From: Caerostris darwini
Taxonomy: Eukaryota
NCBI GenBank assembly: GCA_021605075.1
Contig: BPLQ01015363.1
Span: forward strand, 835,513-899,512
Reading direction: 5' to 3'
DNA: 64,000 nucleotides
Shown: in pieces, positions 10,461 through 63,521 of the stretch
How the letters are laid out: each line of letters opens with the position of its first letter
How positions within the stretch are numbered: position 1 is the first letter of the stretch
Made by a program: the position numbers and the translations under genes
The notes under the pieces: generated by a model
Database searches by the model: none
The model's input: the letters and a program-made list of their open reading frames with translations, nothing else
Told to the model about the DNA's origin: nothing

Positions 10461-10467
10461 AAATTTG

Positions 10468-17187: not shown

Positions 17188-17189
17188 TT

Positions 17190-20420: not shown

Positions 20421-22710
20421 GTGATACGTCATTATATTTGATATAGTCATTATATTTGAAAGTTACTTTAGATTATATGCTTTCTTTTTGAACTCTGGGA
20501 TGTGCTTTTGGTATCGCGCCATTTGGCTCCTCAAATACAATAAGAATGAATACAATAAGAACTTCCATTTTCTTATGCAATTTGTAGATTTGAAATTATA
20601 TACCGATGAGAAATAAAAGTAAGATCAACTTCGGAGGTGTGTTCCATGATATTAAGATTTAAAGTATTGTTTCTCATGCCAAAACTCTAAGCACACCCAC
20701 TCAGAGTATTTGGACCTTCTTAGCTCACCTTAAGACATCAACAAAAACTGAGATAAAAAAATGTGAAAATAAATGCAAATAAATACAGATGATTTACCTG
20801 AAAAGGAAATCAAAATAAGAAGAAAATACGTTTTATATTACCCGACGAACCCAACACAAAACAAGAAGATAAATTGAGATAAACGTCGTAAAATTCTCGT
20901 AAAAGTTGCCCAAGTCAAACAAGACAGAAACAGAGCATACACACCTTAACACCCTAAAAAATCAAAACTCCATCATAATTATTGATTCACAATATAGCGA
21001 TCAATATTTAAGTTAGTTTATTGTTCTTCTTTTTCGTTATCCACTAAGCAAGCCGGACAGTTTGAAAACATCCTGAAAAATATTTTAAAGCTAGTATGGC
21101 ATTGTATTTTTATATGGGCGGTGCTTTGAGATGTTTTCATTGCATGTCTTTGATGCAATCAAAATCTTCTACCGGTGTGTTTTGATTACAAACTTTGTGT
21201 TTACAGAGAAAAGATAAAGTAGGTGTATTATTGGATTAATTATTAATTTTTCTATGTAAGAAATTTAATTCTATTGTAATTAAAACTGCACAAATAATTC
21301 TGAATTAAAAAAAAGAACTTTGTATCAAAATAATTGGATTCTTAAATAATAATCAAATCAAAAATATCTTCTCAAAGATATTCATACATTTCTGCGTTTG
21401 AATATAAATTTATTTTATGTTTTCATTACCTATTAAATGAAAAATATTGCTGTTTGAGTACAAATATAATAATTAATTGTGCTTCTCATTAAATTTAATT
21501 TATAAATTAAAATTCGAAATTTCATAACTCTGCGTGTATCAACTTCCTGTTAAATTGGACTGATAAGAAAATATTTTGTTAAATTTGCAGCATTATTTAA
21601 AATTTTTCATTTTATAACAAGCAATAAAATTTTAATTCGGTAGCTGTTTTTTTGCATAAGAGACTGAATGAGTTTATTATGATAAAAATTATGTACAATT
21701 TTAACAAAAAAAGTTACATTATATTTCTGATGAGTAAATTATTAATTTAATTATTGACAATTTTGAAATATATATATAAATTAAGGAGAAAATTGAAATA
21801 ATTTCTCAGTTATCTTTTTATGAATAACAGAAATTATTTCTACATAATACTTCTTAAAATTTGTACTATAAAATTATTGTAATGTTTTCATTTATAATGC
21901 TTGCTAAGATAATGTTTAAAATTTATTGAAATTTTTATATATAAATAATATTTTTTTTTAACATCTATGTAATTTGTATAAGTTTTTTAAAAATGTTATG
22001 TAACTATAGTGTGCTATAATATAATTTTGTTGATTTATTATGTGAATTTATGAATTATAGGGAAAAATAATTTTTATAAAATATTCATAATTTTTTTATT
22101 AATATATTTTTTATGTATTTCATTATAATATTTAATTATTTTGTATAAATCAGATATCTTCACAATTAGTTGCAATATATAATATTTCTTCAGTATTGAA
22201 TTTCTGTAATTTTTACCATGATTTTAATATTTAATATGTGATAATCTGTGAGCTGCAAGATTTGCAATATGGTCCTTGTTTTATAAATAACATTTATTCT
22301 AATTTTGGCCTCATTCAACCATGTCTCATGTCAAAAGTAAAATTGTATTTATCTGAAGGAGGAAGTTTACTTATTTACCATGTATGTAAATTTCTTAAAA
22401 ATACCTATCATATGATGGCAACATAGAATATTTAGGTTATGATAATAGAAAAAATTGCTGTTTAAAAAACATTTACTTTTTTTTTTTTATTTTTTTTTAA
22501 AATTAAGGCTATATAATTAGATGATGGAGTTTTAAAATTCTGTGATCTTATTTATTCATTTAAAAATATTTATTTTACTATGTGTGAATGTATATGCCAA
22601 GTTATTTTCAATATCATTTTCATTATTCTTTTATGTGTTATTAGCATTGCATTTATAAGAAACTGAAATAATTTAAAAAAATGTTCTCTTGTTTTTTCAG
22701 AGTTATCATA

Positions 22711-22841
22711 ATGACTGAAATGTCTTTTGAAAATATTTTCCTCAAACAAACAGCTTTTACATCAACGAAGAATAAATATATATTGCTGTCATCTGAAGAA
22801 AATGAAAGAAGTTTGCATCCTGATGAAGCCAACTTAAATCA
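22711..22841 (+). CDS. TEP1: TEP1-like first coding exon: ATG at 22711. The exon begins at acceptor ttttttcag|AG at 22701. Donor CA|GTAAAT, phase 2.
   Basis: Open frame MTEMSFENIFLKQTAFTSTKNKYILLSSEENERSLHPDEANLN. Polypyrimidine-AG acceptor and GTAAAT donor are present. The phase is compatible with the next exon. Confidence 0.5.
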
Positions 22842-24475
22842 GTAAATTTTTTGGGGTTTTATATTTTAAAAGTGTTTAGCTTTCGCATTTTTAGCCTAAT
22901 TATGTCTAGTTTATTTTTATACTTGGTTGAGTTCTCTGGTGGGTATTTCTGTTGTTTTTACTAAGTGAAAATGATTACTCATTAAAAAAAAAAAAAAAAA
23001 ATTATTCTCATAATGCAATTATTCTTGTAATGCTTCTGTATTTAATACTTTTATTTCTTTTAAAAATAGCAGTTTATTAAAAAAAATATTGTTGGTTTAT
23101 GTAATGTAAATAAACACATAAAATTTTTGTTTCTCAATAACTACCTGTATTGTATAGCTTATAAAAAAAGTGTCATTACAATTCTTTAGAGAATTTATAA
23201 TTTAATGATATTGCTGTAGAAAATAAAATTAAACTAAATTAATCAAAATATAAACCCATAAAATTGCTGACAAATGCAATAATAATGCAAAAACATCATG
23301 AAGAGACAATTTTTTTTACAATAATGGTATTTTAAAATTACACTTTTTAAAGTTTTCAGTTAACAAAATTACTTTATAATGATTAACCGATTGAAATTCA
23401 AATAAAACATATTAGCTAATTTTCTCGTTTGGTTAGCTGCTTCTTTTAATTAACGAATGTATGTGTGGGTATTTTCCTGTTTAAAAACAGTTCTATTTTA
23501 ACAAAAATATGTCTTCGTTTAAATATGGTTGGGGGAAAAAATGCTGCATTGAAAATATATCTATTCTGCATATATAAAGAGATAAGCCAAAATTGGTCAT
23601 ATTATTTTTTGTAATACCTTAAATAAGGATGTTTTAAATCTTATACGTGTCCATTTTAAATCTTATATATGTTCATTGTTAAAATCACCCAAGTTTAACA
23701 TAATACTATTCAAATTCTTATTACATTTTAAAATTGTATAAAAAGTTTTGTCACATGGATTCTGATACTCTGAACTTGTTGGATTAATTGATACAGACTT
23801 ATAACTTTATACTTTCATTTATATTAAAATGAGAGAAATAGAAAGTTTCAAAAAAGTTTAAAAATTAACTAGAAGTGCAAAGAAAAGGTGCCAAAATAAT
23901 AGAGAAGTTGTAAAGGGTTCATCTCTTAAGTGAGAGTGGCAATGGAGAACTGAATGAATATTTTTTATATTCCTTACCTTTTACTTTCAGTAATAAATCT
24001 ACACCACTAACATCCGATTCAAACTGAATATAAATGTACTCCACCGATTATGAGGATGCACTTTATTCTCCTCAATTTGCCATACTTTTCCTGTCAGTTG
24101 AATGAGTATTCATATATATAAAACCTGATTTTGATTGGAGCAACAATTAACATAAATGATTCATTTTGTGTTATTTTATAAAAGAATCATTTTATTAGGT
24201 ACTCTTAACATGAATACTTTCACCGTTTTTGTATAATCATTTGTTGAACATTATAGCTGGAAGAGAACCAATAACAATGGAAGAAAAGAGGTAATGCAAA
24301 CTTCCATAATTTTTATAATAATTTTTTACTAAAGATCGAAGATAATGATAGTTGTATAAAATGAATTGATAAATTTTGCAAAAAAAAAAAAAAAAAAAAT
24401 CTACAATAACAACTGATGCAATAACAGTTCCAATTTTTATTCCTTCCAAAATTGAAAAGAATAAATTTTTTAGTA

Positions 24476-25500
24476 CAGGGTGGTTATAAGTAAAGTGACT
24501 CTCTTCAGACCCCTCTAGAACATGTTTTGCCTATCAGAATTTGTGAAACTTGTTATATACACTATATGGACCATGGAGAAAAGATTTCTGCAATAAAATT
24601 TTTTAAAAATATAGTCAAAATTTTGACCATTGGGGGAATTGTGGCACCTAAAGAAGCAAAAAATCTGTCAGAATCATTCCAATTTATTCAAGTGCAGAAT
24701 GGGCTCCATTGACTTCAATTACCTGTTGAAAGCTCATTATAGAATGTTCAATGGTATAGCGAAGAAACTCTTGAGGGATTTCAGCAACAAGGCGTGTAAT
24801 GCTGTATTTCAACTCAGGTAAAGCCATAATTTCTCTTCCATAAATACGGCCTTTTAAGAAACCCATCCAAGCAGACATCCGGAAAAGCTCTGGATATTAC
24901 ACGATTCTCGCCAATGTTAGCACAAAGCAGTTCTTTGATTTGGCGTCCAATGTGGGGAGGTGCTCCATCTTGCATGAAGACAGTGGTCTGTAAACATTGC
25001 CGTTCCTGTAAAGCAGGAATGATCTGTTGTCGAAGGAGTTCAATGTACCGTGCACTCGTGACAGAGCGCGTCTTACGACCTTGAGGAATGAGAATTTCAA
25101 AAAAAAAAACGATCCGAGTATAAAATCAACAGTAAATCCATGCCATGCAGTCGCATAATCAGAATGCAGTTTTTATTGGTGCAGGATATTAGGAGGTGAA
25201 GCATCCCACATGCTACTGTTTTGATTATTCACGGCTCTGACTAAAGAAAAGTGCGCCTCATCTGACCATAGAATTTGCCGAGCACGCATCATCAACTTCT
25301 ATTCTCACCAAAAATTGGCAAGCAAATTCATAGTATGTTTGATGGTCTTGTAGCATTTGTACCATTTTAAAATGGATCGCAGAATTTTTCGTACTGTCGA
25401 CCACAGAACATGGGTTATTGCATTTTCAGTGACTAAAGAAATCATAACTAAACTATTGGTATGATGAAATGCTGAATATGTAATCATGTACTAGTGCTGT
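24476..25500 (-). mobile_element. Degraded Tc1/mariner-superfamily (DDE_3-type) transposase relic. One recognisable terminus is TA|CAGGGTGGTTATAAGTAAAGTGAC at 24474.
   Basis: Minus-strand ORF fragments read ...FSDEAHFSL...VNNQNSSMW... and ...MSAWMGFLKGRIYGREIMALPELKYSITRLVAEIPQEFL. This is the conserved C-terminal WPxRSPDLxPxDFFLWGYLKxxVY...L.ELK..I motif of a widespread arthropod transposase family. Confidence 0.5.
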
Positions 25501-26794
25501 TTAAGATAATTTAAAGTTTCACTGATTGTGAAATTTGTTTTATAATTCACCTATTGAATGCAAGAAATGCATGACCAATGAAAATCTACAGAGAGATCTA
25601 AAAAGTGTACAGCGATAAAGTTAGTGATGGAATAGTTAGAAGATAGGATCTTTCTTTCAATTAGAAAAAAAAAAAAAAATGCGCCTGAAGCAGCTGCTTA
25701 TCAATGGCTTATTGCTGCTGCCAAGGGCCCCAAATTACCAGAAAACTTGAGATCTTTTCAGCAGGGGTGGAAAATCACGCCAAGCTGCTCCAAAATTTAT
25801 GCCTTGCTACATTCTGTTACAAAAATGGCAATTTTCTGCGCCAAAAATGAGATATTTCCTTTATTTTGATTTAGTAACCCAGAAAAATAGCCTAATATGA
25901 ATGAGCCTATTTTCTAAGATTGTTATTAGAGGGGGTAAGAATTAAACAATTTTATAAGAGTTCTATTTTTATCACCTTTTTACTGGCGATAGGATTTATT
26001 AGCTATGTCAACGACATTTGTTAGAGGGCGAAAATTCTTTTTAAATGATTCCAGGCGATATTGTGGCGCCATCTATTGTTCTTTATAGGAACAAATAAGA
26101 TAAATAAATAATTTGTTTGTGAACATATACTATTAAATGTTTCTACAACAGCTGTTTCAAATAAATGTATTAAATTTAAATTAATTCCAAATTTTATGAA
26201 TATTTTACATTTGTAAATTATTCACCACCAAGCAGAATTTTTTTTAATTTCTGAAAATGTTTGATACTTTTCTCTACAATTAATATGTTTTATTTGTCCC
26301 TTTTTCATTTATTATCTTTTTAAATAATATCCGAATTATAAAATAATTTTATTTTTGGTAATAATCTAAAAATTAGCTGTAATCTGTCATTTGAAGGATT
26401 ACAGTAATTCTTTATTTCCCATTTATTACTTGAACTGAATTTCTTAAGCACATTTTTTTCTTTTCCCACAGAAAATCTATAACTATGTTATATCTAGAAA
26501 TATTAAAATTACCAAAAATAAGATTTAAAAGCATATTTATGACGTTTATAAATTATTTATCTATATGTAATTATTGTTCATTCTTCTTATGCATGACATA
26601 TTGGATGTATTTTTTAACGGCTAACAATTTTTCTTTATCCTTCTTGCAACTTCGCATATTTTGGGAATTCGTAGTAATGAATATTTTTTGTACTGCATTT
26701 TGTATTTTTTAAAAAATTGGATACATATAATTGCAGATTTATTTTTGAAACTAAAAAACACCATTTTGCTTATACAAATAAAAATAATTTATAA

Positions 26795-26880
26795 CATATA
26801 AGCATTTGTAACATACAAGCATAACATATAAGCATTTGTAGCATACAAGCATAACATATAAGCACTGTAAACATATAAAC
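26795..26880. repeat. Minisatellite: about 3 copies of a 27-bp unit (AACATATAAGCATTTGTAACATACAAGCAT).
   Basis: Direct reading of acatataagcatttgtaacatacaagcataacatataagcatttgtagcatacaagcataacatataagcactgtaaacatataaac. Confidence 0.8.
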
Positions 26881-27229
26881 GTTTTTTTTCTTTCTCAATC
26901 AAAACTCGTGTATCATTTGATACTTTTAAATTTTAAATGAATCTTTTGTTTCTTACAAATTATTTTAAATCAATGGTAATATTTTAAAATAACATTTTTA
27001 TTGTAAAAATAGCATGCAAAAACAAAATTCTGAGAAAAATTTAATATATTTTTTCTATTATATAATTTGATAATCATATTTTTTTATGAAATCTGTTAAA
27101 AATTGGTACAATATTTCCATAAAAAATATTCATTGCTAAGAATTCCAAAATATTCGAAGCTGCAAAAAGGATAAAAAAATTGTTAGCCGTGGAAAAATAC
27201 CAAAAACAACAAATATAATAAACATGCCT

Positions 27230-29120: not shown

Positions 29121-29248
29121 ACTTTCCAATTTAAACTCTAGGATTGGCTCTTCTCTTTTAAAGAGAAAATATGATTTCTCTTTTCTTGATGATGCAGCTG
29201 AAGACAGAAATCCACTCACAAGCACTAAAAATAAGTTTCTGGCAAACT
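29121..29248 (+). CDS. TEP1: TEP1-like exon 2: acceptor tctttttcag, donor GTGAGT. Phase 2 in, phase 1 out.
   Basis: The splice restores codon CAA. The open frame reads QLSNLNSRIGSSLLKRKYDFSFLDDAAEDRNPLTSTKNKFLAN. Splice signals are good. Confidence 0.5.
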
Positions 29249-30310: not shown

Positions 30311-31352
30311 CACTCAAGAGCCAAAACATTATGACCACTCCTACATTTTGCAATGAACTCGCCTGGATGACGTGGCAGGCGCGTGATCAGGTGGAAGTGG
30401 TATTTAACTGCTGCTGGAGAGTCTGAAGAATCATTCTTTAACTTACTTCTGTGTGTGATGGGAAAGGTTGCGGATCTAAGCGACTTTGATAGAGGGCAAA
30501 TTGTAATGGCTCGAAGGTTCGGAACAAGTATTTCCGAAACTGCACGGCTCATGGATTGTTCGCGATCTACAGTTGTTAGTACTTAGTGCAAAGTGGATGA
30601 AAAACAGTGATACCAGCAGTAGACGACATGGTGTCCCACTCGTGTGCCTTTGCTGACCAAGCGTCATCGCCAACTGCGCCTGCGCTGGGCCCGGGAACAT
30701 CGTGACTGGCCCATGGATCAGTGGGAGACAGTTGTCTGGTCAGATGAATCACGGTTTGTCATTCATCACGCCGATGGCCGTGTCAGGATACGCCGTCTTC
30801 CAGGCGAACAATTGCTCACTCAATGTACAGTAGGTCATACACAGGACGGTGGTGGCGGTATTATGCTTTGAGGGACGTTCTCTTGGGTGTCTCTGGGACC
30901 CGTGGTTGTGATGGAGCAGACCATGAATGCTACAGGGTATCTGAACATCATTGCGGACCAGTTGCACCCTTACATGGCCTCTGTTTTTCCAGCTGGAAAT
31001 GGAATATTCCAACAGGACAATGCCCCTTGTCACAAGGTTAAAATTGTGTTGTGGTTCCAGGAAAATGATGCTGAATTCCAGTTAATGTCCTGGCCGCCTA
31101 ACTGACCGGATCTCAATCCGATAGAACACATTTGAGATGTCCTGGGACAGCAGCTCAGAGTTCAGAGATCACCAATTCGCAATATCTCGGATTTGCGTGA
31201 CCGTTGCTTAAACATCTGATACAATCTGTCTCAGGCCATCTACCAAGGACTTGTGGCATCCATGCCAAGGCGAGTTGAAGCTGTGTTGCACGCCAAAGGT
31301 GGGCCAACTCGTTATTGACAGGTGGTCATAATGTTTTGGCTCTTGAGTGTAT
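30311..31352 (+). mobile_element. Tc1-like DNA transposon, internally deleted to about 1.04 kb, with 29-bp TIRs intact and a frameshifted DD34E transposase. It sits in a TEP1 intron.
   Basis: The left end is TACACTCAAGAGCCAAAACATTATGACCAC. The right end is GTGGTCATAATGTTTTGGCTCTTGAGTGTA. Internal frames read ...[23 protein letters not shown], ...WPMDQWETVVWSDESRF, and ...FQQDNAPCHKVKIVLWFQENDAEFQLMSWPPN. These are Tc1 signatures. Confidence 0.8.
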
Positions 31353-32871: not shown

Positions 32872-33021
32872 CTTTTGGTGATACTAAAAAAGCATATATT
32901 TCTGAGAAACATGGGGATTTTTCTCTGAAAAAGAAAAAAAAGAAACTAAAAGTTAAATCTAAACGATGGCGTCGTGCATGTTATAATGCAGATAGAGATA
33001 GAGAGAGATACAGGGAGAGGG
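32872..33021 (+). CDS. TEP1: TEP1-like exon 3: Lys/Arg-rich. Acceptor ttgttttacag, donor GTAAGT. Phase 1 in and out.
   Basis: Open frame SFGDTKKAYISEKHGDFSLKKKKKKLKVKSKRWRRACYNADRDRERYRER. It has strong splice signals and continues the frame from exon 2. Confidence 0.5.
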
Positions 33022-35089: not shown

Positions 35090-36000
35090 AAAAACAAGCC
35101 GAATTAGCATTATCAAATCAAAAGTAATCAAACGGTTTCGTAGAATCAAGCGCTTTGCATATATTCTGAATATTTCAAGACAGACAGTTTCTACGCTATG
35201 GAGGCAATTTCAGAACGATGTAATTTTTGTAAAAAGGCCTGGACAAGGTTGTAAACGAATGAGAACTGCTTCTGAAGATCGATAACTGGCAATAACTACC
35301 CGTCGTAACAGGAAGTTTACTGCTCTCTAGTTAAGTTCAAAGCTTGCAGCCCCCATGGGAAATGCTTTATCACGGCAAGCTGCATACAGAAGGCTTAATA
35401 AAAAATGCCTTTATGCTAGAAAGCAGAGAGTATATGTTTCACTATCTTCACAACGCTTTAATTGGTGCAAAGAACATAACTGGAATGAACACCATTGGTC
35501 CCATGCTCTCTTTACTGATGAGTCGAGGTTTAGTTTTACAGGTGATTCTAAACGTGCTTACATTTGTATTGAGTCAAGAACACGAAGTTATCCCTCGAAC
35601 ATCGTGGAACATGACCGTTTCAGTAGTGGAGGTGTGATAATATGGGGAGGAATAATGATCGATGAACGGACGGTCCTATACGTTTTCAACAGCGGATCTG
35701 TGACAGCCCAGAGCTATAGGAATGAGGTTTTAGAGCCTTGTGTATGAGTTTTCAGAGGTGCATATGGATCTTACTTTTATTTATAAACAATAATGCTCAT
35801 CCACATCGAGCAAACCTCGTTACTGAATTCCTTCAAAGTGAAGACATTCAGCGAATACCATGGGCAGCAAACTCTCCTGATCTTAACCTAATAGAGAGCT
35901 TATGGGACTACCTTGGAAGAGCAATTGCACATAGACATCCTCCTGCTAGAAATATAACTACTCTGAAGATGTCATTGCTGAGGAATGGAGCTTAATTCCC
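35090..36000 (+). mobile_element. Tc1-like transposase relic with frameshifts. No TIRs were identified.
   Basis: Frames read RPGQGCKRMRTASEDR.LAITTRRNRKFTA, ...WCKEHNWNEHHWSHALFTDESRFSF...GGVIIWGGI..., and ...NNNAHPHRANLVTEFLQSEDIQRIPWAANSPDLNLIESLWDYL. This is a DDE Tc1 family. Confidence 0.7.
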
Positions 36001-41320: not shown

Positions 41321-41365
41321 GGTTGTCTTCAGACGAATCAAGAGAAAGGGATACTTTGCGCCATA
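41321..41365 (+). CDS. TEP1: Candidate small TEP1-like exon (45 nt, phase 1-1). It is optional for frame continuity.
   Basis: Acceptor aacaatag| and donor |GTAAGT. The open frame reads GLSSDESRERDTLRH. A symmetrical exon can be skipped without breaking the frame, so support is weak. Confidence 0.3.
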
Positions 41366-42357: not shown

Positions 42358-42540
42358 GATTTCATTCAAAAAAACGAGTTATGAGGAGTTATTGTTTAGC
42401 TGCTGATGAAATAGAACGTTCAAATTCTGAAGATGCAGGAATTGGAGCAGATGCCGCAGAAATATGTGCCTTTCAACATTCTGGCATATCCTCATCAAAT
42501 AAAAAAGATAAATTAAAAGCTGATTATATCATGCTTAGGG
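42358..42540 (+). CDS. TEP1: TEP1-like exon: acceptor taataatag, donor GTGAGA. Phase 1-1.
   Basis: Open frame RFHSKKRVMRSYCLAADEIERSNSEDAGIGADAAEICAFQHSGISSSNKKDKLKADYIMLR. The phase fits the neighbouring exons. Confidence 0.5.
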
Positions 42541-45177: not shown

Positions 45178-45237
45178 ATTTACTTGCAGATATGGATTAT
45201 CCTGTCATAGAACGAAGTATGTCATCATCACTTCTAG
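45178..45237 (+). CDS. TEP1: TEP1-like micro-exon (60 nt, phase 1-1).
   Basis: Acceptor gtatttcag| and donor |GTAATA. Frame DLLADMDYPVIERSMSSSLL. It is the first of four closely spaced symmetrical exons. Confidence 0.5.
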
Positions 45238-45349
45238 GTAATAGTTATGGTATGGTGCATTTTTATATTCAGATTAATTTATTAAAATTTTAGTTTTATT
45301 ATTATACAATAAAAAATTAGCGGTAAAAAATATTATTTTAAATTTTCAG

Positions 45350-45406
45350 AGCCAACAATTGATCGTTTGGAACAAAAATCTTGTACTAAGTCCTGTAGTG
45401 CTCCCA
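45350..45406 (+). CDS. TEP1: TEP1-like micro-exon (57 nt, phase 1-1).
   Basis: Acceptor aattttcag| and donor |GTAAGT. Frame EPTIDRLEQKSCTKSCSAP. The upstream intron is 112 bp. Confidence 0.5.
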
Positions 45407-45493
45407 GTAAGTATGATACAGATTTTTATACAAAGAATTTTCTGATTTTCTCAGTAAATAATGTATAATAAAAATTAATTTAAATTTTTTCAG

Positions 45494-45556
45494 CTGCACA
45501 ATTTCTACCTGATGCACCAAATTTCGCATTTGGTTCAAGTAGTTTTGCAAGCCGAG
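45494..45556 (+). CDS. TEP1: TEP1-like micro-exon (63 nt, phase 1-1).
   Basis: Acceptor aattttttcag| and donor |GTATCT. Frame TAQFLPDAPNFAFGSSSFASR. The upstream intron is 87 bp. Confidence 0.5.
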
Positions 45557-45640
45557 GTATCTATACATTTGTATTTGAGTGTTTAATTTATTTATTGCTG
45601 TTTAAAAAATAATAAAAAAAAATAACTATTTTAATTTCCA

Positions 45641-45697
45641 GGTATGTTCAGAGCAGCACCAGCAGGAGTAAAATTCAGTTCAGGTGTTATTCGTCCA
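45641..45697 (+). CDS. TEP1: TEP1-like micro-exon (57 nt, phase 1-1).
   Basis: Acceptor taatttccag| and donor |GTAAAT. Frame GMFRAAPAGVKFSSGVIRP. The upstream intron is 84 bp. Confidence 0.5.
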
Positions 45698-46829
45698 AGT
45701 AAATAAATTATTTACATAAATATTTATATCACCATTTTATTTATTTTTATTTACTTAAAATAAAACTATACATACTAATATTTTTTAGTTTCAAGTGCAG
45801 TTTGATTAAAGCCTTTTAAAAGTATGCATTCTTGAAGAAGTAAAGTTAATTTGAAGAATTATTATTAGTTCAAAACTCAAAAATATATTAAATAGGATAA
45901 TTTAAACAAGTAGATTCATATGAATTTTAACAAATACTTTGCTGTATTATGAAATCTTCATTAAATTTCTTAGTTTTTTCCTCATATGGTACAAACACAG
46001 AATAAAAAAGGCTTTCATGGAAAATATCAATAAGAGATAATGTTTATATGTTGAGGCAATATTCCACACAGCAATTTTACTGAGTCTTAGAAACAATAGT
46101 CAGCCTGTATTTAGAATTAAAAAAGAAAAATATATATTGATGAAATATTTAAATTGATCATTTAAATGATAAGCATTGTGGGTCATTTGAATTATTGATC
46201 ATTTAAATATTGAATTCTGATGTAATTCAAAATTTATAACTCATATGTATGTTAACCTTTTTGTTAAGGTTTCTCATGCTTTTATTTTACACTGTTTAAA
46301 ATATCATGTAAATTTATTGCATTGTCTTTCAAAGAAGAACACCTGCTAATAAATCTGTATTTTTCGCAATTTGTATTAATTTCTAATCAATTAGTTCAGT
46401 TCTGTAATCAGAATTGTTTTATCAATTTCCTATTTAATAAAATTATATCTTATAAAGATTAATTTATAAATCCTAAATTCCTATGTGATATATTCATCCT
46501 ACATATTTGATAATTTATTAGGCAGAACATATAATTTCTGAAGAAACACTTTTGGATTAGTGAGTAGATTATAAAGTTACTAAACCATTGTGCAGTCATT
46601 ATACTTTTTATAAAAAATATGTTATTATGTATATATCTTATGAATTTTGCCGTCTATATACATTCTGTGTGATAAATATGCGGATTGTATGATTTAAAAG
46701 TCACACATTCCGGATATGATTGCACAAAATGATCAGATGATGAAATGATTGATTCGATCATGTATGCACAAAAATCAATTTATTCATCAAAATTTACTTT
46801 ATTGCTTAAAAGTAACCACTATCACAGTG

Positions 46830-47620
46830 CTTAATCCAGTCCTCCTTACATATTTTGTTGGTGGATTGAGGTATGGTCATTAATTCCTTCAGGGAATTTT
46901 CTTTTATGGCCTCATTCGGGTCAAAATGCTTTCCTCAAAGTGGTAATTTTAATTTTGGGAACAGAAAAAAGTCACATGTTGCTATATCAGGTGAATACAT
47001 TGCTTGGTCGATGGCATTTGTTACAATGATGACTTTGTGTAATGATGCATTATTGTAATGTAAAATCAGTGAATTATTCTTCGAGAAATCTGGCTGTTTT
47101 CGATGGATATTCTCGTTCAAACGCCCCATAATGCTTAAATAATATCCTATATTCACCCTTTGTGCCTCTGGAAGTAATTCAAAGTGCACCACACCATAAC
47201 AGTCGGAAAAACAGTCAATATGATCTTGATTTTTTGAGCTACTCTGAGGCGGTTTTTTGGGCTGAGGCTCGTTTTCGAAGCACCATTCCCAAGATTGTTA
47301 GTTAGTTTGTTTGCATGTTGTACTTGTAAACCCATGTTCATCACCAATTATGCCTTTCATGAAGGTGGTCTCCATAAAAACTCGGGAAATCATGCTTTCA
47401 TCAATCTGCTTTTGATGCACTTTCTTGGATAAATTTCAGCTCTTTCGGAACCAGTCGTATGGCGATGCGTTTTATGCCCAAAATATAAGTCACAATGTTA
47501 AGAATAACCGTATAGGTGCGTTCACCTCTTGAACCACTTCTCTAAGAAGAGATTACTATTTCACCACCAACTTTGTGATTTTGTCTAGGTTTTCGTTGTT
47601 GTAGCAGTTGAAAATCGACC
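46830..47620 (-). mobile_element. Degenerate mariner transposase relic on the minus strand.
   Basis: Minus-strand ORFs read ...CYGVVHFELLPEAQRVNIGYYLSIMGRLNENIHRKQPDFSKNNSLILHYNNASLHKVIIVTNAIDQAMYSPDIATCDFFLFPKLKLPL and MNMGLQVQHANKLTNNLG. These are the mariner catalytic region (HDNAxxH ... PDLAPCDFFLFPKLK). Confidence 0.65.
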
Positions 47621-49167: not shown

Positions 49168-50053
49168 CAGGTGGACTGAAACGTTCGTAGGCTGACACAT
49201 AGATAGCGCTACTAGTATTAAATCCATATGATTTTTAGTTAGCCCTAACCTTCAAAAGACAAATGTATAAATTTGACAGCTGTTGCACTATTAGTATGTG
49301 TTATAGCATTTTATAGTGAAGTTATAGCATTTTTAGTGTTCATCACGTGCAGTCCATTCGGCTGACTGTCGATTGGACTCCGGTGTGAAATGATGGAGCC
49401 ATGTTTCTTCCATTGTCACATATCGACGCAATAATTCGGGTTTATTTAGATTGAACAGCTCTAAACACTGCTTAGAATCATCAATTCGTTGTTGTTTTGG
49501 GTCGATTGTGAGCTCTGCGCGGCACCCACTTTGAACAGGCTTTCGCATATCCAAATATTCATTCACGATATGTCCAACACGTTCCTTTGAAATCTTTAGG
49601 GTCTCAGCTATCTTAATCAACTTCCCTTTATGGTTACCAGAAATTATTTTGTAGACTTTTTTGATGTTTTCGTCGGTAACAGCCTCTTTGGGGCGTCCAC
49701 TGCGTGCATCGTCCTCGGTGCTCATTTCGCCTCGTTTAAATTTAGCAAACCACTTCTCTACGGTTGATTTTCCTGGTGCAAAGTCCGAATAATGTTTATC
49801 AAGCCAAGCCTTGGCTTCAATAGTATTTTTTTCGCCAAAAAGCAATGCTTTATTAACACACGAAATTCCTTTTTATCCATTTTTTCAAACTAACAAAAGT
49901 TGCTTCACTAAAAATGCCATAACTCACATACTAATAGTGCAACAGCTGTCAAATATATACACATGTCTTTTGAAGGTTAGGGCTAATTAAAAATCATTAA
50001 TACTAGTAGCTCCATCTATGTGTCAGCCTACGAACATGTCAGTCCAACTGTTA
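49168..50053 (-). mobile_element. Internal-deletion mariner derivative. It has about 150-bp inverted terminal arms flanking only the N-terminal 170 aa of a mariner transposase.
   Basis: 49168..49320 is the near-perfect reverse complement of 49900..50053 (CAGGTGGACTGAAACGTTCGTAGGCTGACACATAGATAGCGCTACTAGTATTAA...). The internal ORF 49333..49845 (-) reads ...WFAKFKRGEMSTEDDARSGRPKEAVTDENIKKV...WLHHFTPESNRQSAEW. This is the mariner HTH N-terminus, and it stops before the catalytic domain. A T21 run precedes the left arm. Confidence 0.7.
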
Positions 50054-53053: not shown

Positions 53054-53202
53054 TTACAGCACCTGATATATCTGAAATGCCTGTGTATAACTTCAGCTCT
53101 GACAAAGAGTTAGTGACTGAAGCATATAAGTCGTTTAGTTTCATAGATCATCAAGCTAATTTGCTTCAATTGGAAAAGATACATGATATTAAGGCTAAAA
53201 AA
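53054..53202 (+). CDS. TEP1: TEP1-like exon: phase 1 in, phase 0 out. An alternative acceptor 6 nt downstream, at 53060, is also in frame.
   Basis: Acceptor tttgcag| and donor |GTAAGA. Open frame ITAPDISEMPVYNFSSDKELVTEAYKSFSFIDHQANLLQLEKIHDIKAKK. Its phases link the phase-1 chain to the phase-0 TROVE exons. Confidence 0.55.
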
Positions 53203-54511: not shown

Positions 54512-54646
54512 ATAAAGTTCCTGAATATTGCAAGTATGGCTTTAATTTACAGTTCTAATTTAAAAGATGTTAATGACACATATCGGATGTTAATTCAGAA
54601 ATATGCTGATGATGTCAAAACCTTTGAACCTGAATTCATTTTAAAG
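54512..54646 (+). CDS. TEP1: TEP1-like exon: start of the TROVE-domain region. Phase 0-0.
   Basis: Translation IKFLNIASMALIYSSNLKDVNDTYRMLIQKYADDVKTFEPEFILK. Human TEP1 has ...TSDPTLAAIFEICRELALLEPEFILK at this point. Acceptor tttttttag| and donor |GTATTT. Confidence 0.8.
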
Positions 54647-54985
54647 GTATTTTTGAATTTTTTAAATATTTGTATGAATTTATTTTATCAAGGCTACTTG
54701 AAATATTGCTCTAAAATATTATGAAGAATTTTATTGAAAGTTTAAATGAGTTTTATTTAAGATTTTAAAAATATGAATATATCAGACAACTTAAGAATAC
54801 CTATAAGAAAACATATGAAAATTCTGTGAGATAAATTCTGTGATTAGTAATGATATATTTATCAGCTCAACATCTTTTTTAAATAAATTAAAATTGTCAA
54901 GGTAAACATGCTCCTCTGTTACTAATTTGTTATCCAACTATTGAAGTTTTAAGTTCTTGATTATTTTTACACTGTTCAAACATAT

Positions 54986-56270
54986 TAGGTTGGGGAAAAA
55001 GAAATCCATTATTTTTATATGAACTTCAGGACTTTATTTAACATGCTTCGGATTGTCCGATTTGGGTCAAATATGCACCGTTTTGTTGTATGATTTGTTG
55101 CCATTTTAAAGGTAACTTCATAATGCCTCTCTCATAGAAGTCCTGGTCTCTATTTGCAAAAAACTCTAGTAGTCGATTTTCACAATCCTCCCTAGATGCC
55201 AATTTTTTATCATTAAAGAAATTTTGCAATGCAAGAAAAAGATGATAATCGCTTGGTGCCAAGTCCGGACTGTATGGCGGATGCATTAAAACTTCCCAAC
55301 CAAGCTCCCGAAGTTTCTGGCGAGTCACTGTAGATGTGTGTAGCCTAGCGTTGTCCTGGTGGAACACGACACCTCTCCTGTTGGCCAATTCTGGCCGTTT
55401 CTGGTCAATCGCTATCTTCAAACGGTCAGTTGTTGACAGTAGAGATCAGAATTTAGCGTTTGGCCATATGGAAGCAACTCATAATAAATAATCCCCTTCC
55501 AGTCCCACCAAATGCATAACAGAACCTTCCTGGCCGTTAGTCCTGGTTTGGCCACCGTTTGAGGTGCTTCACCGCTCTTTGACCACGATCGTTTTCGCAC
55601 AGGGTTATCGTATGTGATCCATTTCTCATCTCCAGTCACCATCTGTTTAAGAAATGGGTCTATCTCATTCCGTTTGGCCAAGGCTTCGTAGATGGAAATT
55701 CGATCCATCATGTTCTTTTCTGTTAATTGGTGTGGCACCCAAACATCGAGCTTCTTTTTGAATCCAGCTTTGTGAAAATGGTTTAAAACAGTTTTATGGT
55801 CGATTTTTAGCTCCTGGGCGATGTTACGACTGCTAACATGCCGGTCAACTTCGATCATTTCTCCGATTTTATCGACATTTTCGACGACCGGCCTACCTGT
55901 GCGAGGTGCATCTTTAACATCAAAAATTCCTGAACGGAATCTACGAAACCAAAATTGCACATAATTGGCTGTTACAGTATCGGAACCATGAACACCATTC
56001 ACAATTTTAGCCGCCTGGCTTGCATTTTCGCCTTTGTCAAAGAAAAACTGTAAAATGTACCGAATTATCTCTTTGTTCACTTCCATTTTTAACACCCTGT
56101 AACTCCCAACTGAATGGACCAAACAAAAAACAGAAGAAGAATTATTTTAGTACGAAGTGCCACCTTTCTAACGAGCATGAATCTGAAATTGTTTAATTGA
56201 TACTTTACGTGATATCGATCACTACAGCCATCTATCGAAAAAATAATGGATTTCTTTTTCCCCAACCTAA
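54986..56270 (-). mobile_element. Near-intact mariner element of the cecropia/Hsmar1-like subfamily, 1285 bp. It has about 31-bp terminal inverted repeats (TIRs) and TA target-site duplications. It sits in a TEP1 intron.
   Basis: The left end is TA|TTAGGTTGGGGAAAAAGAAATCCATTATTTT. The right end is AAAATAATGGATTTCTTTTTCCCCAACCTAA|TA, its exact reverse complement. The internal transposase ORFs lie on the minus strand. Confidence 0.85.
55038..56086 (-). pseudogene. Mariner transposase CDS with a single frameshift near 55420. Otherwise it is full-length, about 345 aa.
   Basis: ORF 55418..56122 reads MEVNKEIIRYILQFFFDKGENASQAAKIVNGVHGSDTVTANYVQFWFRRFRSGIFDVKDAPRTGRP...WITYDNPVRKRSWS...CIWWDWKGIIYYELLP. 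It continues out of frame in ORF 55038..55421 (KIAIDQKRPELANRRGVVFHQDNARLHTS...PPYSPDLAPSDYHLF). This is a DD34D-type catalytic domain. Confidence 0.8.
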
Positions 56271-59051
56271 TATATCCTGACCATCCATACACCCATACAC
56301 ATACTCTTACACCACTTACACATACCAATTGGTGCTTTGCAAATAATTGAATTGTCTTGTAATCCTATATATATATATTTTTTTTTTGTTAAAAAATATA
56401 TGCAGTTTAAAATTTAGAAATATTTTTCTAGATAAAATTTGTGTAATGCTATTTTTATTGTTTCATTGATAAACTATTTAGTCAAACATGCTTAATTAGA
56501 ACTTTTCATTTTATATGAATATTTATTTATTTAACATTGCACTTATAGTAATGAGAAAATAATATATTTGATATATTACACACTTTAAATCATAACTTAT
56601 CTTCATGCTTTTAAGGATTTCATTCTTTGATTATTTTTCTGTTTACATTTATTTATCTAGGAATACTATTTATTTTCTTTTTATTGGTAAAAAACAAAAC
56701 GATAGCATATTTTCATTTCTGTTTCTGAAGATTATATATCTTAAGAACAATGCTAATTTTTTACTTTTTTTGTATATGTATGTATAAAATTATTGCTTGT
56801 ATTATGTTAGTAATAGTAACTTATTAAATATATACATTTAAAAAATAAAACTTCTCCTTGTTTTACCCTCTTTGCTTTTATTTACTTTACAATTTTTTTG
56901 TATGTGTTAAGATAATAAATTATTTATTTATATAAATGTTTAAGAAATAAAATAATTTATTGATTACAAATCTTGTGATGCGTGATAATATTATTTTACA
57001 ATGCATCATTCTTTGTTTAGGTGTTAATTCCCAATTAAGACGTGTAAAACAGTTAAATAAACTAAAATAATATATTTTGGAATTCCACAATATAATAAAG
57101 GAAAAGAAAAGTTAATAAGAGATTTTTTTTTAAAATCTATAAGAAATAGAAATAGCTAGAGTGATGTAGAGATAAATTGTTTATCACAGTTTTATAATTC
57201 TGTAAATCATTTAATTGCTGTGTTGAATATTTTTTACGTTTAACTCTGCAACTATTAATAATTTTAATATTACTTTTATCACAAATTTCTTTTATTCATA
57301 TCAAGTTTCTAAAATAAATTCATTTTTTTTTATTATCTGTGCTATGCATGTATTTTTTCTTGTTTTCTGTAAATTTAATAAGTTAATAAGCATTAAGCAG
57401 ACTTTTCTTTAAAAAAATTGCTTTTAATGTATGATATTGGAAAAGGATACATCTGTAATTACTACTTAGATTTTCTGTAATTTTTTCATTTTTCACATTG
57501 TTTATTTTTTTCCTGGTATGTATCAGATAAATTTTTTTTTAAATAATATTCACTGTCTACAAAGGCTTTTTTTAAAAATAATTATGCTAAGGTATTCATA
57601 CCATAATAAGTACTCTATCCATAACCTACAGCCTATTCTTTTTATTGGATTTGGTAACATCTTCTTAATTTTGATTAGTTTTAACCATTAACTTTTAATC
57701 TGTTTCTTGCACCTTTGCTTTTAAATGGTTTTAAAAGCAAGTAGAATGGTTTAAGTAGCAAGTAGTTAGATAGTATATATTGCTGTGGAACTTTCTCCTT
57801 TAATTTTAATTCATTCAAAGTGTGAAATAAGCATATGCTTTAAAATAGTTAATAGTTAGTCATGAAGCTAAAAAATCTGTTTTTAAATCGAATGTTAGGC
57901 TTTATAAAAAAATAAAAAGTTTCAATATATAAAGGAGAAGTTGTTAACATTAACATCCATCCTATTTTAGAAGAAAAGTTATGTTACTAACTCAGTAGGT
58001 AAATAATATTTCAGTTTTTTAGCAGTCAAGATCTGGTTGAAAAGTTATTTAATTATAAAAAAATTCTTTTAAATGGTGCTACACTATTTTGCTTGCTTGT
58101 TTACATTATTCTTTATGTCACAGTTGTATTATGCTGATCAACTTGTCATTTATTACTGATATATAAAAAGTGCCAAGAGAATAACATTTAACAAGTCGTA
58201 TTCTTTCAAATGAAAAAAAGGTTGTGGAATTATACAAAATTCAGAAAGTTGAAGAACTATGTCTAAAGAAAAAAGATGGGCTATTTTATACCAAGAGCTT
58301 TACTTGTGGATTAAAGGAGCATGTACATTTATAAAAATTTGAAAAATTCATGTAAAGCAGTATGTGCTAAAGTGGTCTTAGTTTCAGAAAGTTAAAAAAA
58401 AAGATACATTTTATTAATGTGAGCATGAACAACTCTGATTTGAAGGACTTGTATTTGTGTCAGTGTGTGCAAATAGATAGAAAAAAGCATAGAACAAGGT
58501 GATAGAAGAAATATGTATGAATGGATTTGTCCTCTTTCTAGTAAATGTGAAAGTGATAAATTCTCAGAAAAGTATTTAACTTTGTTCTATTTGCAATTGA
58601 ATAATGGCTAATCTGATTTATTTTTCACTATGCTGTTAGCTACGATTTTAAGTGGAATTATTTGCTGTTTTATTATTTTAAAGACAAATATTTCACATTC
58701 TCATTATCTTTCAAACTATGTTGCAAATGCATGTAACTATCAAATTAAAATAAGCACATTTTTTAATATTCAAAAATTTATTTAAAAGGAATTAAATGGA
58801 AACCAAGTAGTAGATGCCTCTATATGGTTATCATTCTCTCTCAAAAATTGCTTATTACTTTTATTATGTAATCAAGACTTATTATGGATGAATTTTAAAT
58901 GACACTGTTTGCAATTTGAAAAACATTAAACTATAGAAATATTCCAATTGGCTATTCAGCTAGCAGTCATTTTTTACTTTCCCATATATATTAGTTGTTT
59001 ATTTATTATTCATTTCCTATGAAAAATTTAAAAATGTCCTTTTATTTTTAG

Positions 59052-59213
59052 GTGGCACTCTTTAGTCGTCAAGAACTCCACATTAGATCAGCTTCGAATT
59101 TTCTGTTATCTTATGCTGCTTACTGTGAAGAAACGCGGCCTTATTTAGAAAAATACTTTGAATCATGCATAAGATTGCCTTCAGATTTTATAGAAGTGGC
59201 TGAATTATATCTG
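59052..59213 (+). CDS. TEP1: TEP1-like TROVE exon. Phase 0-0.
   Basis: Translation VALFSRQELHIRSASNFLLSYAAYCEETRPYLEKYFESCIRLPSDFIEVAELYL. Human TEP1 has ASLYARQQLNVRNVANNILAIAAFLPACRPHLRRYFCAIVQLPSDWIQVAELYQ. Acceptor ttattttag| and donor |GTAATT. Confidence 0.85.
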
Positions 59214-61339
59214 GTAATTTCGTTATTCATTTAATAAAGCATGTTTACTAAGAAAATGAATGCATAAAAAAGTATGATTAAATATTTCTTGTGTGAAAAT
59301 TTATCAAAATATTATTCTTTAAATATTATTACTTATATTGTTTTTAATATTATTCTTGTTAAATATTATTACTTATATTTTTTTTAATATTATTTTAGTT
59401 AAATATTATCTATTAAGTGAAAGGGATTTTCACAGAATTAGATCATGTAACTTTTTAAATGTTTATACAGATTCCTTATAGAAACTAAATTTAATGTAAG
59501 GAGCCTTACTTTAATAATTATTGTTATAAAAATATGAAAAATTTTCATATGTCAATTCATATTCAAATTATGATATGCCAAAATTTTCTTAGATGTTGCA
59601 TATCAATTTTTATTGGATATTAATGATCATATATTTATATATTATATTCATCTCTATAGATAAAATTCTAAGTGCCGATTTCAAATAAAAAAATTTTATT
59701 ATTTTATGTTAAACTTCACATTTTGGCACTAACAGTCAATTTTGTTTTGATATATTAAGTATCAAATGTAAAAATTCTGTTTTTCAAAAAATATTATATT
59801 TTATTTATTGAAAATAACGGTTTTTGTAATTTTCATCTAATATTATTAAGGGAACAAAAATTGTGTAATTAGTATAGATCTAATATAAATCTTTTAGATA
59901 GAAAGTTCTTTTTCTGTTTTAATTAATTTTAGAAAATTTTGTTATTATGTACTGCTTAATGTGGTATGTTAATTCATTATATAATTTTTTTTATATTTTT
60001 ACTTTCTTTAGAAGCATTAGTTTTCTTTCCTTAGATAAAAATAGTTTAGATCATAAATATTATTCAAGTTTGTATATAAGATCATGAACTTTCAACTATA
60101 TATCAATTGGAATTTTTGTTATTGATTGGAAGCAAATATTTGAAATTTTATCACACTTAGAAATTAGGGTATTTCTTTGAAGAGGAAATAAAATATGTAT
60201 AAAATTTTAACATATCTGTAAGATATAATGATAAGGGCTAATTTGATACAACAGTGTCTACTACTTTCGAAAATCCAAAATCTACTGCACAATAAATCAG
60301 TTAGACTCCCGCCACTTGGTAAGTCTAGATATATTCAATGAAACTTCCAGCAACAGCCGGTATATAAAGACTTATGAATTAAAAAGTTGTATAATTCAGG
60401 GAGAGTTGTCAGGTGGACAGCTCTATGGATAGTGTTAAATATTATGCTTTATAATTGTAAATATTATACGTAATGTGTATTAAAGATGATGAAAAAAACC
60501 AGCCTGTCCTTATTTTAAAATTCCCCTGTTGATACATAGTTATTCCCCTGCTGACTTTTTGCACTGCCACAACTACTTAATCTATAATGGTAAAGTAACT
60601 GTGCAATCTGTATCTACACTATGTCGCAAAATATAGTATAATATGCTTTTCTCAAAAAGAAAAAGGATATTTTATGTGTTCATTTGTTGGAAAATTAAAA
60701 ATAAAGTATTTATTTTAAAAAATCCCCAAATAATATGTTCATAAGTATACCCAATAAAATTTTTATGGATAAATTTTAAAATTTAACAATGTACTTTCAA
60801 ATGCTAATAAGTACTAGAATTACATTATTTTGTTTTGCTTCAAATAGGCGATTTTTAATTGAATTTCTATGTTTTGCATAAATTTTGGGTAAAGTTCAAT
60901 ATCATACTTGCTCAATTATTATTTTGAGCTCCATGATCCAAAAATTTATCACTAAATTTCATACAAGTTTCCCGATAAGTGTCTCCTCATATTGAGATCC
61001 GAACTAAGTATATGCTAGTCCATAACTTTGTAGAAAATATATTTGTAGATTTTATCTGTGCATCTATTTTTCAACGAATTGAAACACCCAATCAGGCCCT
61101 CAAAGCAAATCCAGTAATGAAATTAAATAATCCTCTAATGTTTGTTAATAGACTATACAATTCAATGTTTTACTGCAAAAGGACAGAAACGCTTGGGCGT
61201 ATAACTCAAACCACAACAAATCGCTATTAACCATCCACATTGTTGCCACCCAAAAACGCAGGTTTGTTTCTTAAATCATTACAGTAAAATTCATATTAAT
61301 AAGGTTCATCTAAATCCCATTTATTAGCATTACTAAATA

Positions 61340-61625
61340 GGCGCCTGATGGCCGAGTGGCTAGCGCTCTGTCGCTCGGTATCACAGGTATCGGGTTCAAA
61401 TCCCGGCGTTGCCATGAGTGTTTGTAGTAGTTCGGAATCCACTTTAAACAGTAGGTCCCGGTCCTAATAGGATCGTGAGCGTTGCGGGGGCATTGTTACT
61501 ACGCGTCCGTGGCTTATCTTCAAGTTACACGTGCCCCCTGGGTAATGCAAAGTGAGTAACGTCGGTGCAGCTCTTATGGCATAAAAAGATCACGGTCTAT
61601 TTGCCAGCTGCATTAAAAAGAGAGT
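61340..61625 (+). mobile_element. tRNA-derived SINE copy of the same family, inside a TEP1 intron, with an 11-bp target-site duplication.
   Basis: The head GGCGCCTGATGGCCGAGTGGCTAGCGCTCTGTCGCTCGGTATCACAGGTATCGGGTTCAAATCCCGGCGTTGCCATGAGTGTTTGTAGTAGTTCGGAATCCACTTTAAACAGTAGGTCCCGGTCC matches the family. The direct repeat ATTACTAAATA occurs at 61329..61339 and again at 61626..61636. Confidence 0.7.
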
Positions 61626-62269
61626 ATTACTAAATATGGTACAGAGAGAGTCATTTTTCACCATAAGACATTAGACACCACAGACAAATTAGTCGTATCC
61701 TGTTATGGGGCATTTTAAAATCTGTGATTTGTATATATATATTTTTTTTCAAATGTAGAGGCAATTTATTGCAATGACTTTATTTTCAGAATGTGCCATG
61801 CATAATATTTTTTTTGTTATCCCTTATGCATTTTTTTTCTTTCATTTATCAGGTCTTTGTATTAGAATGTTTTCTATCTTTTTTTAAAAGTTCTAGGAAT
61901 TTTCCTCAAAGATAATTCTGAAATCTTAGAAAGCCGCTTCAGCTGTTTTGCTTTAACTTTTAAATTTAAAATTTGATATCCTCCACTGAAATCTGTTTGG
62001 CCCTTGTAATTGCATATTCCAAAACTCTAAACATGACAAAAATCAAACAAAACTTTATAATTGTTAATTAATTGTCTGTGAAAAATGACTTAAAAGAACA
62101 GTCAATAATTAAAAATATTTTTTCAATTTTCTAATTTTTATTTCATTATTAATTGTTGCCTTATGTTTTGTAAAATAAATACAAATGAATCAATGGGAAA
62201 GATAGAAAGTTTATCATTTCTACAAGTACATGAATAAAACTTTAATTTTGAATGCCATTTTCAATCTGT

Positions 62270-62385
62270 ATCTACGCGTTTTAGCAGTGATTGGGAGTGA
62301 GGATCAAGGAGTCAGGTGTTAAGAAGTTTTGAAGGAGTCGGTTTAAAAATCCGACTCTAACCGTTTTTATAAAAATAATTTTTAT
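62270..62385 (-). repeat. Second, inverted copy of the small dispersed repeat seen at 6100..6240.
   Basis: See the entry for 6100..6240. The two sequences are reverse complements of each other. Confidence 0.6.
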
Positions 62386-63152
62386 TTCTCTAAAATTCTA
62401 GATATTATTATTAAAATTAAATGATAAGAAGACAATTCAATTGTGTCCTTCAATAATATTTTCTTTTGCTTACCTTCTATTCTATAATACTTTGGTACAT
62501 TAATAGTAAGTAATTTTTATAGTACATATATTTTTTTGTATACAAATTTTGAGTACAAGGTTGTATTTTAAGTTAGTGCTAATAATACAGCTTTAAAGTT
62601 ACAAAGAATACTTTGTTATGCAAAAACTATTTTTATAAATATATGAGTCCAATAAAAGTCACTGAATATATTTCATAAATTTTTCTAAATTCCTTAGTAG
62701 AGATTATAGTACATAAACTATGGTTTAGAGTTGAGAGTTGGTATAAAAAATTTTGCTTGGGAGTTAAAAGTTTTTGACAGACTTCTTACTCTTACTTTAT
62801 AATAATAATTTCAATAGAAATTCAATACATGTGATTAGTGTCTTGTAGGATATTTCTCACCTTATTAATATCCTATTAAGATGTGTAGTATCTCAAATTA
62901 AAGTGTTTGTCTTTGCTAGGCATTTTAATTATATATTATAACTTTTGATTTCATTTTCATTTTCTTAAAAAAATAAAAAATCTTATACATTTTCAGATAA
63001 GATGTATATTTTTAAGTATAATTTTTACATGAAAATCAAAGCTTAATTTGCAAGACATTTTTGTAACTGTGTGATGATTAATAAAAGATGTTATCTAATT
63101 ATTTTGCTCATATGTTTATAATATATAATTATAGATTCTTATCTTTTTGAAG

Positions 63153-63249
63153 GTTTTTAATGATTCAAGATTAAAGACTAGATCACTGCCATCTTCTTTA
63201 AAAAAAGTAATGATGAAATCATTTTCGAAATTTGATGCTTATCAATTAG
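63153..63249 (+). CDS. TEP1: TEP1-like TROVE exon. Phase 0 in, phase 1 out.
   Basis: Translation VFNDSRLKTRSLPSSLKKVMMKSFSKFDAYQL. Human TEP1 has ...LPACLRTAMTDKFAQFDEYQL. Acceptor ctttttgaag| and donor |GTAAAT. Confidence 0.8.
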
Positions 63250-63403
63250 GTAAATACTAATGTATTTTTCTTCAATTCACAGTAAATATTTTTCAGTGTT
63301 ACTGAATTTTAAGATATTTTTCAATCAGTGTATTTATTTTATTTTTTTCATAATAATTTTGAAGTTCCCATATAAAATTTATGTGAAATAAATGTTTTTA
63401 TAG

Positions 63404-63521
63404 CAAAATATAATCGGGAAAAAAAGGGTGCTAAGACTTCTGGTTTCACATTAAAACAACTTATTCGACTTTTACATTTGAATTCTCCAGCAAACGAAAT
63501 TATGGGTCTTCTTGGAAAAAA
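63404..63521 (+). CDS. TEP1: TEP1-like TROVE exon. Phase 1 in, phase 2 out. The gene continues beyond the window end.
   Basis: The splice junction gives ...FDAYQL|AKYNREKKGAKTSGFTLKQLIRLLHLNSPANEIMGLLGK. Human TEP1 has FDEYQLAKYNPRK...PPRFTLKKLVQRLHIHKPAQHVQALLGY. Acceptor tttttatag| and donor |GTAAGT. Confidence 0.8.

Follow-up and report, generated by a model that had tools for sequence, protein, structure and literature searches.

Does the spider Caerostris darwini encode TEP1, the vault-associated TROVE protein, and how much of the gene lies in the piece of genome at hand? The window analyzed here (64,000 nucleotides [nt] of contig BPLQ01015363.1, assembly GCA_021605075.1, forward strand 835,513 to 899,512; all positions below count from its first letter) had been read in an earlier note as holding the 5' half of a TEP1 homolog with large introns. 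The data now available make it very probable that positions 22711-63521 (+) are the first 14 exons, 507 codons in all, of the Caerostris TEP1 ortholog. The model comprises 1523 nt in a single open frame with canonical splice borders; the exons take up 3.7% of a 40.8-kb span and have a GC content of 34%, compared with 16-18% in the four short introns. Three questions have to be answered before this reading is accepted: whether the conserved exons belong to TEP1 or to its relative Ro60, whether the exons upstream of them are part of the same gene, and whether that gene continues into the domains expected of a full TEP1.

The last four exons (11-14; Table 1) encode TROVE sequence, and each has an AG acceptor with a preceding T-rich tract and a GT donor. 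Their earlier translation was reproduced in coordinates, splice borders and phases: joined across the phase-1 junction 63249/63404, they yield a peptide of 170 amino acids (aa) that matches Pfam TROVE (PF05731) with E = 2.5e-31 (109.8 bits; cut-off 23) over profile positions 34-163 of 442; adding exon 10 moves the start of the match to profile position 14. Exon 12 is ~80% identical to its Nephila TEP1 counterpart and 67% identical to that of Tachypleus TEP1. The window covers just the first third of TROVE, stopping at about the last profile position reached by the 170-aa peptide, and the next exon (YPETAEAF...) is absent from 63522-64000, the 479 nt between exon 14 and the window end. That the gene runs beyond the window, as previously proposed, is evident: the sequence ends inside the domain, and exon 14 closes at a donor, gtaagt.

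If PF05731 is common to Ro60 and TEP1, and is the sole Pfam family matched, why should these exons not come from a spider Ro60/TROVE2 gene? When the TROVE part is compared by blastp with multidomain TEP1s (Tachypleus, a millipede and transcriptome assemblies), it reaches 160-184 bits and an identity of 42-44%; with proteins that bear the name Ro60, it reaches only 48-51 bits and 27-30%. The best named hits, from Saccoglossus, Nephila, Araneus, Trichonephila and Tachypleus, are all “telomerase protein component 1”. The Tachypleus protein and one Logan transcript, when searched with Pfam, contain TROVE, DUF4062, WD40 and TEP1-specific beta-propeller families. In the PDB, the 170-aa sequence matched no Ro60 chain at E <= 1, and a search with the family profile gave two weak matches named “TROVE domain-containing protein” (E ~7e-4) and nothing stronger. 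Ro60 is a protein of ~500-540 aa made of TROVE and vWA only, without a long N-terminal extension and without the DUF4062-NACHT-WD40 half; by contrast, an extension of ~290 residues precedes TROVE here, and the motifs FDAYQLAKYN and DPEFILK are held in common with TEP1, features that speak against Ro60. The locus is also syntenic with spider genes annotated as TEP1. A Ro60 gene is thus a scarcely credible reading of these exons: the comparison with TEP1 proteins, Ro60 proteins and the Pfam profile that the earlier note had proposed matched TROVE, placed the exons closer to TEP1 than to Ro60 and bore out the claim of a TEP1 ortholog.

What ties the ten upstream exons to the TROVE exons of this TEP1 gene? 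Signals at their borders say little. The genome is AT-rich, and splice-like sites beside open frames are common on both strands: a crude scan for splice signals and open frames over 32 kb of this region finds 78 candidates in plus orientation and 64 in minus orientation, so that such signals and frames are not counted as evidence here. TE (transposable element) insertions are frequent across the locus as well, and both observations would suit a reading in which open frames that arose by chance, without any relation to the TROVE exons, pass for upstream exons, or in which the whole is a decaying pseudogene. Homology tells otherwise. A profile of the window exons and their first hits, retrieved 1743 TROVE proteins from a set of 1.84 billion representatives; among them, GFS98075.1, “telomerase protein component 1 [Nephila pilipes]”, aligns colinearly with the model over its full length, Met1 included (E = 1e-107). 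A second search found Araneus ventricosus TEP1, which covers 100% of the model, the Caerostris extrusa protein CEXT_586843, which is 88% identical over residues 47-496 of a 13-exon version, and a TEP1 entry of Trichonephila clavipes. In shuffle tests, exon 1 reaches z = 12.7 with Araneus and z = 11 with Nephila, exon 2 (100% identical to CEXT_586843 over 40 aa) z = 7.0 against Araneus, exon 3 (~90% identical to the same protein) z = 6.0 against Araneus, and exon 10 z = 24 against Araneus and 21-24 across three spider genera (Nephila tblastn E = 1.3e-10). Exons 3-9, pooled, reach z = 7.1 against Araneus, with 0/400 shuffles as high, and the independent C. extrusa gene model uses all of exons 4-9 in the same order.

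The 13-exon version, 496 aa long, was the first model and lacked the 33-nt mini-exon, exon 4, which was found through later comparison: its peptide is an exact 10-aa match to residues 96-105 of CEXT_586843, and the frame stays open with the mini-exon included. The phases upstream run 0, 2, then 1 throughout, and the chain enters the TROVE exons without a stop codon. Once the mini-exon is counted, the previously described set of ten upstream exons with consistent phases, starting from ATG 22711, holds; the anchors given for it (22711, 29121, 32872, 42358, 45178-45697 and 53054) are right within 1 nt, the last small exon ending at 45698. The four exons of 57-63 nt at 45178-45698 have GC contents of 35-44%, compared with 16-17% in the introns between them.

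The same comparisons bear on decay. Over 14 exons there are zero stop codons or frameshifts; the TROVE part is 98.6% identical to that of C. extrusa (76% to Araneus, 70% to Nephila) next to a diverged N-terminal region, a contrast that purifying selection would produce; conservation of exons 1-3 and 10, in the correct order, extends across genera; and the intron positions within the TROVE part agree with the Araneus gene. A pseudogene, or a chain assembled from chance frames, is therefore very unlikely, and the 14 exons are best taken as parts of one TEP1 gene.

Table 1. Features of the window (positions from its first letter; phases as in the exon model)
Feature	Position	Strand	Description
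Exon 1	22711..22841	+	Start codon MTEMSFENIFLKQTAFTSTKNKY...; ends phase 2; Nephila TEP1 tblastn E = 1.5e-5
Exon 2	29121..29248	+	Phase 2 in, 1 out; second PLTSTKNKF copy; canonical splice sites
Exon 3	32872..33021	+	Phase 1-1; Lys-rich then Arg-rich (KKKKKKLKVKSKR...RDRERYRER)
Exon 4	41333..41365	+	33-nt mini-exon; phase 1-1; ESRERDTLRH; borders ttcag (5') and gtaagt (3')
Exon 5	42358..42540	+	Phase 1-1; colinear with CEXT_586843 residues 107-166; weak colinear Araneus match, z = 2.0
Exon 6	45178..45237	+	60 nt; phase 1-1; matches CEXT_586843 (DLFADMDYPIIERGISSSLL); GC 35% vs 16-18% in flanking introns
Exon 7	45350..45406	+	57 nt; phase 1-1; canonical splice sites
Exon 8	45494..45556	+	63 nt; phase 1-1; AQFLPDAPNFAFGSSSFASR; 83% identity to CEXT_586843; canonical splice sites
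Exon 9	45642..45698	+	57 nt; phase 1-1; MFRAAPAGVKFSSGVIRP; 79% identity to CEXT_586843; weak colinear Araneus match, z = 2.7
Exon 10	53054..53202	+	Phase 1 in, 0 out; APDISEMPVYNFSS...; conserved segment leading into TROVE
Exon 11	54512..54646	+	First of four TROVE exons; ...KFLNIASMALIYSS...EPEFILK
Exon 12	59052..59213	+	VALFSRQELHIRSASNFLL...LPSDFIEVAELYL; most conserved among the TROVE exons
Exon 13	63153..63249	+	TROVE; ends phase 1; ...SFSKFDAYQL
Exon 14	63404..63521	+	TROVE; last in window; ends phase 2, donor gtaagt
Tc1-like remains	30371-31102, 35091-35992		TEP1 long introns
mariner fragments	46938-47297, 49336-49872		TEP1 long introns
Mos1-type mariner	55041-56146	-	Nearly complete (HTH_48, Transposase_1, DDE_3); intron between exons 11 and 12
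Agrin NtA exon	6300-6947	-	Pfam E = 3.4e-21; hydrophobic signal-like stretch ahead
Kazal/follistatin-type exon	436-717	-	Same agrin-like gene, transcribed away from TEP1

How does the Caerostris gene compare with the spider models already in the databases? CEXT_586843 (a hypothetical protein of 646 aa; TROVE domain-containing in UniRef) shares exons 2-14, in unchanged order and with the mini-exon, but its model lacks exon 1, starting with MTTFNLNS..., has a differing or shorter exon 7, and stops within TROVE. After ...GLLGKK it carries a 16-residue insert, LSILYKILFFSTEYFL, which is found in no other TEP1 and is probably a retained intron; its N-terminal region differs from that of the window by 10-20%. 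By sequence alone, the near-identity in TROVE assigns the window to a Caerostris orb-weaver, and the N-terminal divergence suggests that it represents another species, for which C. darwini is an obvious candidate, or a divergent haplotype. The Araneus and Nephila TEP1s are orthologs: they have the MxEM..ENIFLKxT..TSTKNKF and APDISEMPVY exons as well as a duplicated motif, and introns divide their TROVE part at matching positions; they are 70-76% identical in TROVE, weakly similar and colinear in the middle of the N-terminal region, and span 56 kb and 104 kb for their first ~800 codons, in public models that are split or truncated.

The N-terminal ~290 residues are fast-evolving and probably disordered. 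The region is rich in Ser and Lys (S 12.9%, K 9.8%), as had been said when it was likened to the poorly conserved N terminus of vertebrate TEP1, and in both a poorly conserved region precedes TROVE. The likeness holds for composition but does not extend to a defined family: a feature of vertebrate TEP1 is TEP1_N, a set of 30-residue N-terminal repeats, and Pfam at E <= 10 on the 496-aa model matched TROVE only, with no vertebrate TEP1 N-terminal repeat family. These repeats are treated here as a lineage feature and not as a defining one, other arthropod TEP1s being without them too. Instead, the spider protein has a motif, (P/A)(L/F)TSTKNK(F/Y), encoded at 22756-22782 in exon 1 and again at 29212-29241 in exon 2 (+). 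It is likewise duplicated in Nephila, and in Araneus too, where one copy has diverged; among ~330 retrieved proteins, no non-araneid TEP1 contains it. Full-length arthropod TEP1s show no detectable similarity to the N-terminal 280 residues of the window model and lack PLTSTKNKF; within TROVE, the exons are colinear with vertebrate TEP1 (reptile fragments) at 38-40% identity.

How much of the protein, then, is in the window? Not half, as had been supposed: 507 of the expected 2300-2600 codons are roughly a fifth of the coding sequence. Lepeophtheirus salmonis LsTep1, a full-length arthropod TEP1, has 2427 aa (PMC11219742), and Tachypleus tridentatus XP_076330930.1, of the same TROVE subtype (42% identity), has 2281 aa. 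The four public spider models, by contrast, are only 601-820 aa long, and Pfam finds TROVE alone in them. Could araneid TEP1 be a short TROVE(-vWA)-only protein of ~800 aa, which has lost the DUF4062-NACHT-WD40 half and acts in RNA binding alone, roughly in the manner of Ro60 or of p80 in Tetrahymena? A convergent leucine-rich repeat (LRR) gene does lie within 5-7 kb of the model end in Nephila as well as in Araneus, and tblastn with Tachypleus TEP1 on the first Araneus locus stops at residue 677, as a shortened gene would predict. However, the Nephila and Araneus models stop at the same exon border in the middle of vWA (...EYYLKQxVILREK) and have tails unrelated to each other. Moreover, a DUF4062-NACHT profile search found a second model named “Telomerase protein component 1 [Araneus ventricosus]” on the same contig (BGPR01000017.1) and the same strand, directly beyond the LRR gene; the exons of this model and of the one after it line up in order with residues 760-1402 of Tachypleus TEP1 (vWA end, DUF4062, NACHT) and contain VDHVIVL..., HKYREMVNPELLY, FISSTFKDMHSERDLL and a NACHT P-loop, GNPGSGKTTF, ~32 kb further on. 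The domain order TROVE-vWA-DUF4062-NACHT is thus the same in Tachypleus and Araneus. A truncated TROVE-only spider TEP1 was rejected on the strength of this downstream model and is improbable.

Araneid TEP1 is, judging by these exons, a full-type gene, and the 600-820-aa spider entries are split annotations, because the DUF4062/NACHT exons continue on the same Araneus strand. In GenBank, Araneus TEP1 is spread over two or more models, among them one of 820 aa, whose last exon looks TE-derived, and one of 455 aa. The LRR-repeat gene (1236 aa, opposite strand) lies in a ~32-kb intron, BGPR01000017.1 ~3561121 to 3529543, which interrupts the vWA-coding region, so Araneus TEP1 appears to host a nested gene. 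By analogy, these downstream exons, seen in the Araneus contig rather than in the Caerostris genome, support a DUF4062/NACHT region for Araneidae.

Several points weigh against a full TEP1 with the 14 exons described above. The part that discriminates TEP1 (vWA, DUF4062, NACHT, WD40) falls outside the window, and the public spider models reach no further than 600-820 aa; no WD40 exon was found in the spiders retrieved, the sequence of the Araneus locus ending within the NACHT region. Exons 4-9, taken singly, are not significant against other genera in shuffle tests, and the exon joins are predicted from homology and the gene model of a congener rather than from cDNA. At exon 7, the 3' part, TKSCSAP, is identical to C. 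extrusa CEXT_586843, and the 5' part departs from the C. extrusa model (window EPTIDRLEQKSC vs DSSES), leaving this segment uncertain. So is the start codon, which is not fixed and could be 22711 or 22681: a second in-frame ATG lies at the latter position, and an acceptor-like ttttcag at 22700, 10 nt 5' of ATG 22711, suggests that a non-coding 5' exon may lie upstream of exon 1.

The surroundings of the gene are typified by mobile elements and by one conserved neighbor. The long introns do contain Tc1 and mariner remains, in line with their earlier description as TE-filled, and the Mos1-type mariner between exons 11 and 12 looks like a recent insertion because it is nearly complete and a single frame change is all that separates its two open frames. 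Upstream, an agrin-like gene with NtA and Kazal exons lies on the minus strand; a NtA/Kazal gene likewise precedes TEP1, on the minus strand, in Nephila pilipes, so this part of the gene order is conserved. The full order is NtA/Kazal - TEP1 - LRR in Nephila, and its TEP1 - LRR part is seen in Araneus. Other repeats lie nearby. Retroelement-like open frames at 19723-20428 (-) end shortly upstream of the TEP1 start, and an RNase H-like retroelement segment (ADLLAREGCELPKASSSNLLASEVHSMTLARVNTS...) is present in two near-identical copies ~1.2 kb apart, 16482-17264 (+) and 17674-18096 (+). Rfam and tRNA scans of the window detected nothing related to the gene and no vault-RNA family at the gathering score; their sole match is a full-length 5S rRNA at 10343-10461 (+; 99 bits, E = 2e-20). 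A ~145-nt repeat adjoins it at 10468-10612 (+), with copies that lack the 5S at 4400-4539 (-) and 61346-61463 (+), one of them within a TEP1 intron. The arrangement may represent a 5S gene with a neighboring short interspersed element (SINE), or else a SINE with a 5S head that its other copies have lost by 5' truncation.

What would the protein do? Following the Araneus ventricosus locus, the gene would continue through the rest of TROVE, vWA, DUF4062/TeTIR and the NACHT ATPase. In mammals, the TROVE (p80-homology) region is the RNA-binding part that recruits vault and telomerase RNAs to the vault (PMC3762200, PMC11219742); for vault RNA binding by TROVE, the former cites Poderycki 2005. By extension from mammalian TEP1, the spider TROVE region would bind small structured RNAs, vault RNA among them, and tether them to the vault, and the downstream DUF4062-NACHT module would give a STAND-type protein the activity of a TIR-like NADase, as TEP1 owes its NADase activity to the DUF4062/TeTIR domain (bioRxiv 10.64898/2026.05.01.722283; 10.64898/2026.09.21.753143).

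Two more speculative readings are doubtful at present. In the first, araneids would have swapped the vertebrate-type TEP1 repeats for the duplicated PLTSTKNKF motif, followed by Lys/Arg-rich and “FGS”-type low-complexity segments, which could be a new docking or localization module. In the second, the araneid vWA-coding region would be broken by a ~30-kb intron with a nested LRR gene, which would explain the truncated spider models; in a bolder version, the two halves would now be separate genes in Caerostris.

What does a spider TEP1 add? The earlier note saw in it an informative case for the evolution of vault and telomerase ribonucleoproteins (RNPs), a significance that proves overstated: TEP1 is already in GenBank from orb-weaving spiders, a scorpion, a horseshoe crab, myriapods, copepods and barnacles, and PMC11219742 reports MVP from the majority of ecdysozoan lineages, Chelicerata/arachnids included, and its loss in winged insects. 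Because both proteins are on record in ecdysozoans, the gene leaves unchanged what is held about how vault and telomerase RNPs evolved; it is an ordinary finding, from a genus in which the C. extrusa and C. darwini genomes have both been published (PMC9170102, PMC8692038). What is added concerns the models: the 600-820-aa spider “TEP1” entries are split, the C. extrusa model lacks the conserved first coding exon, and the Araneus gene appears to hold a nested LRR gene in a large intron. The main relevance is to annotation quality and little beyond; correct full-length arthropod models nonetheless have some comparative value, given that TEP1 has recently been shown, in 2026 preprints, to be a TIR-like NADase.

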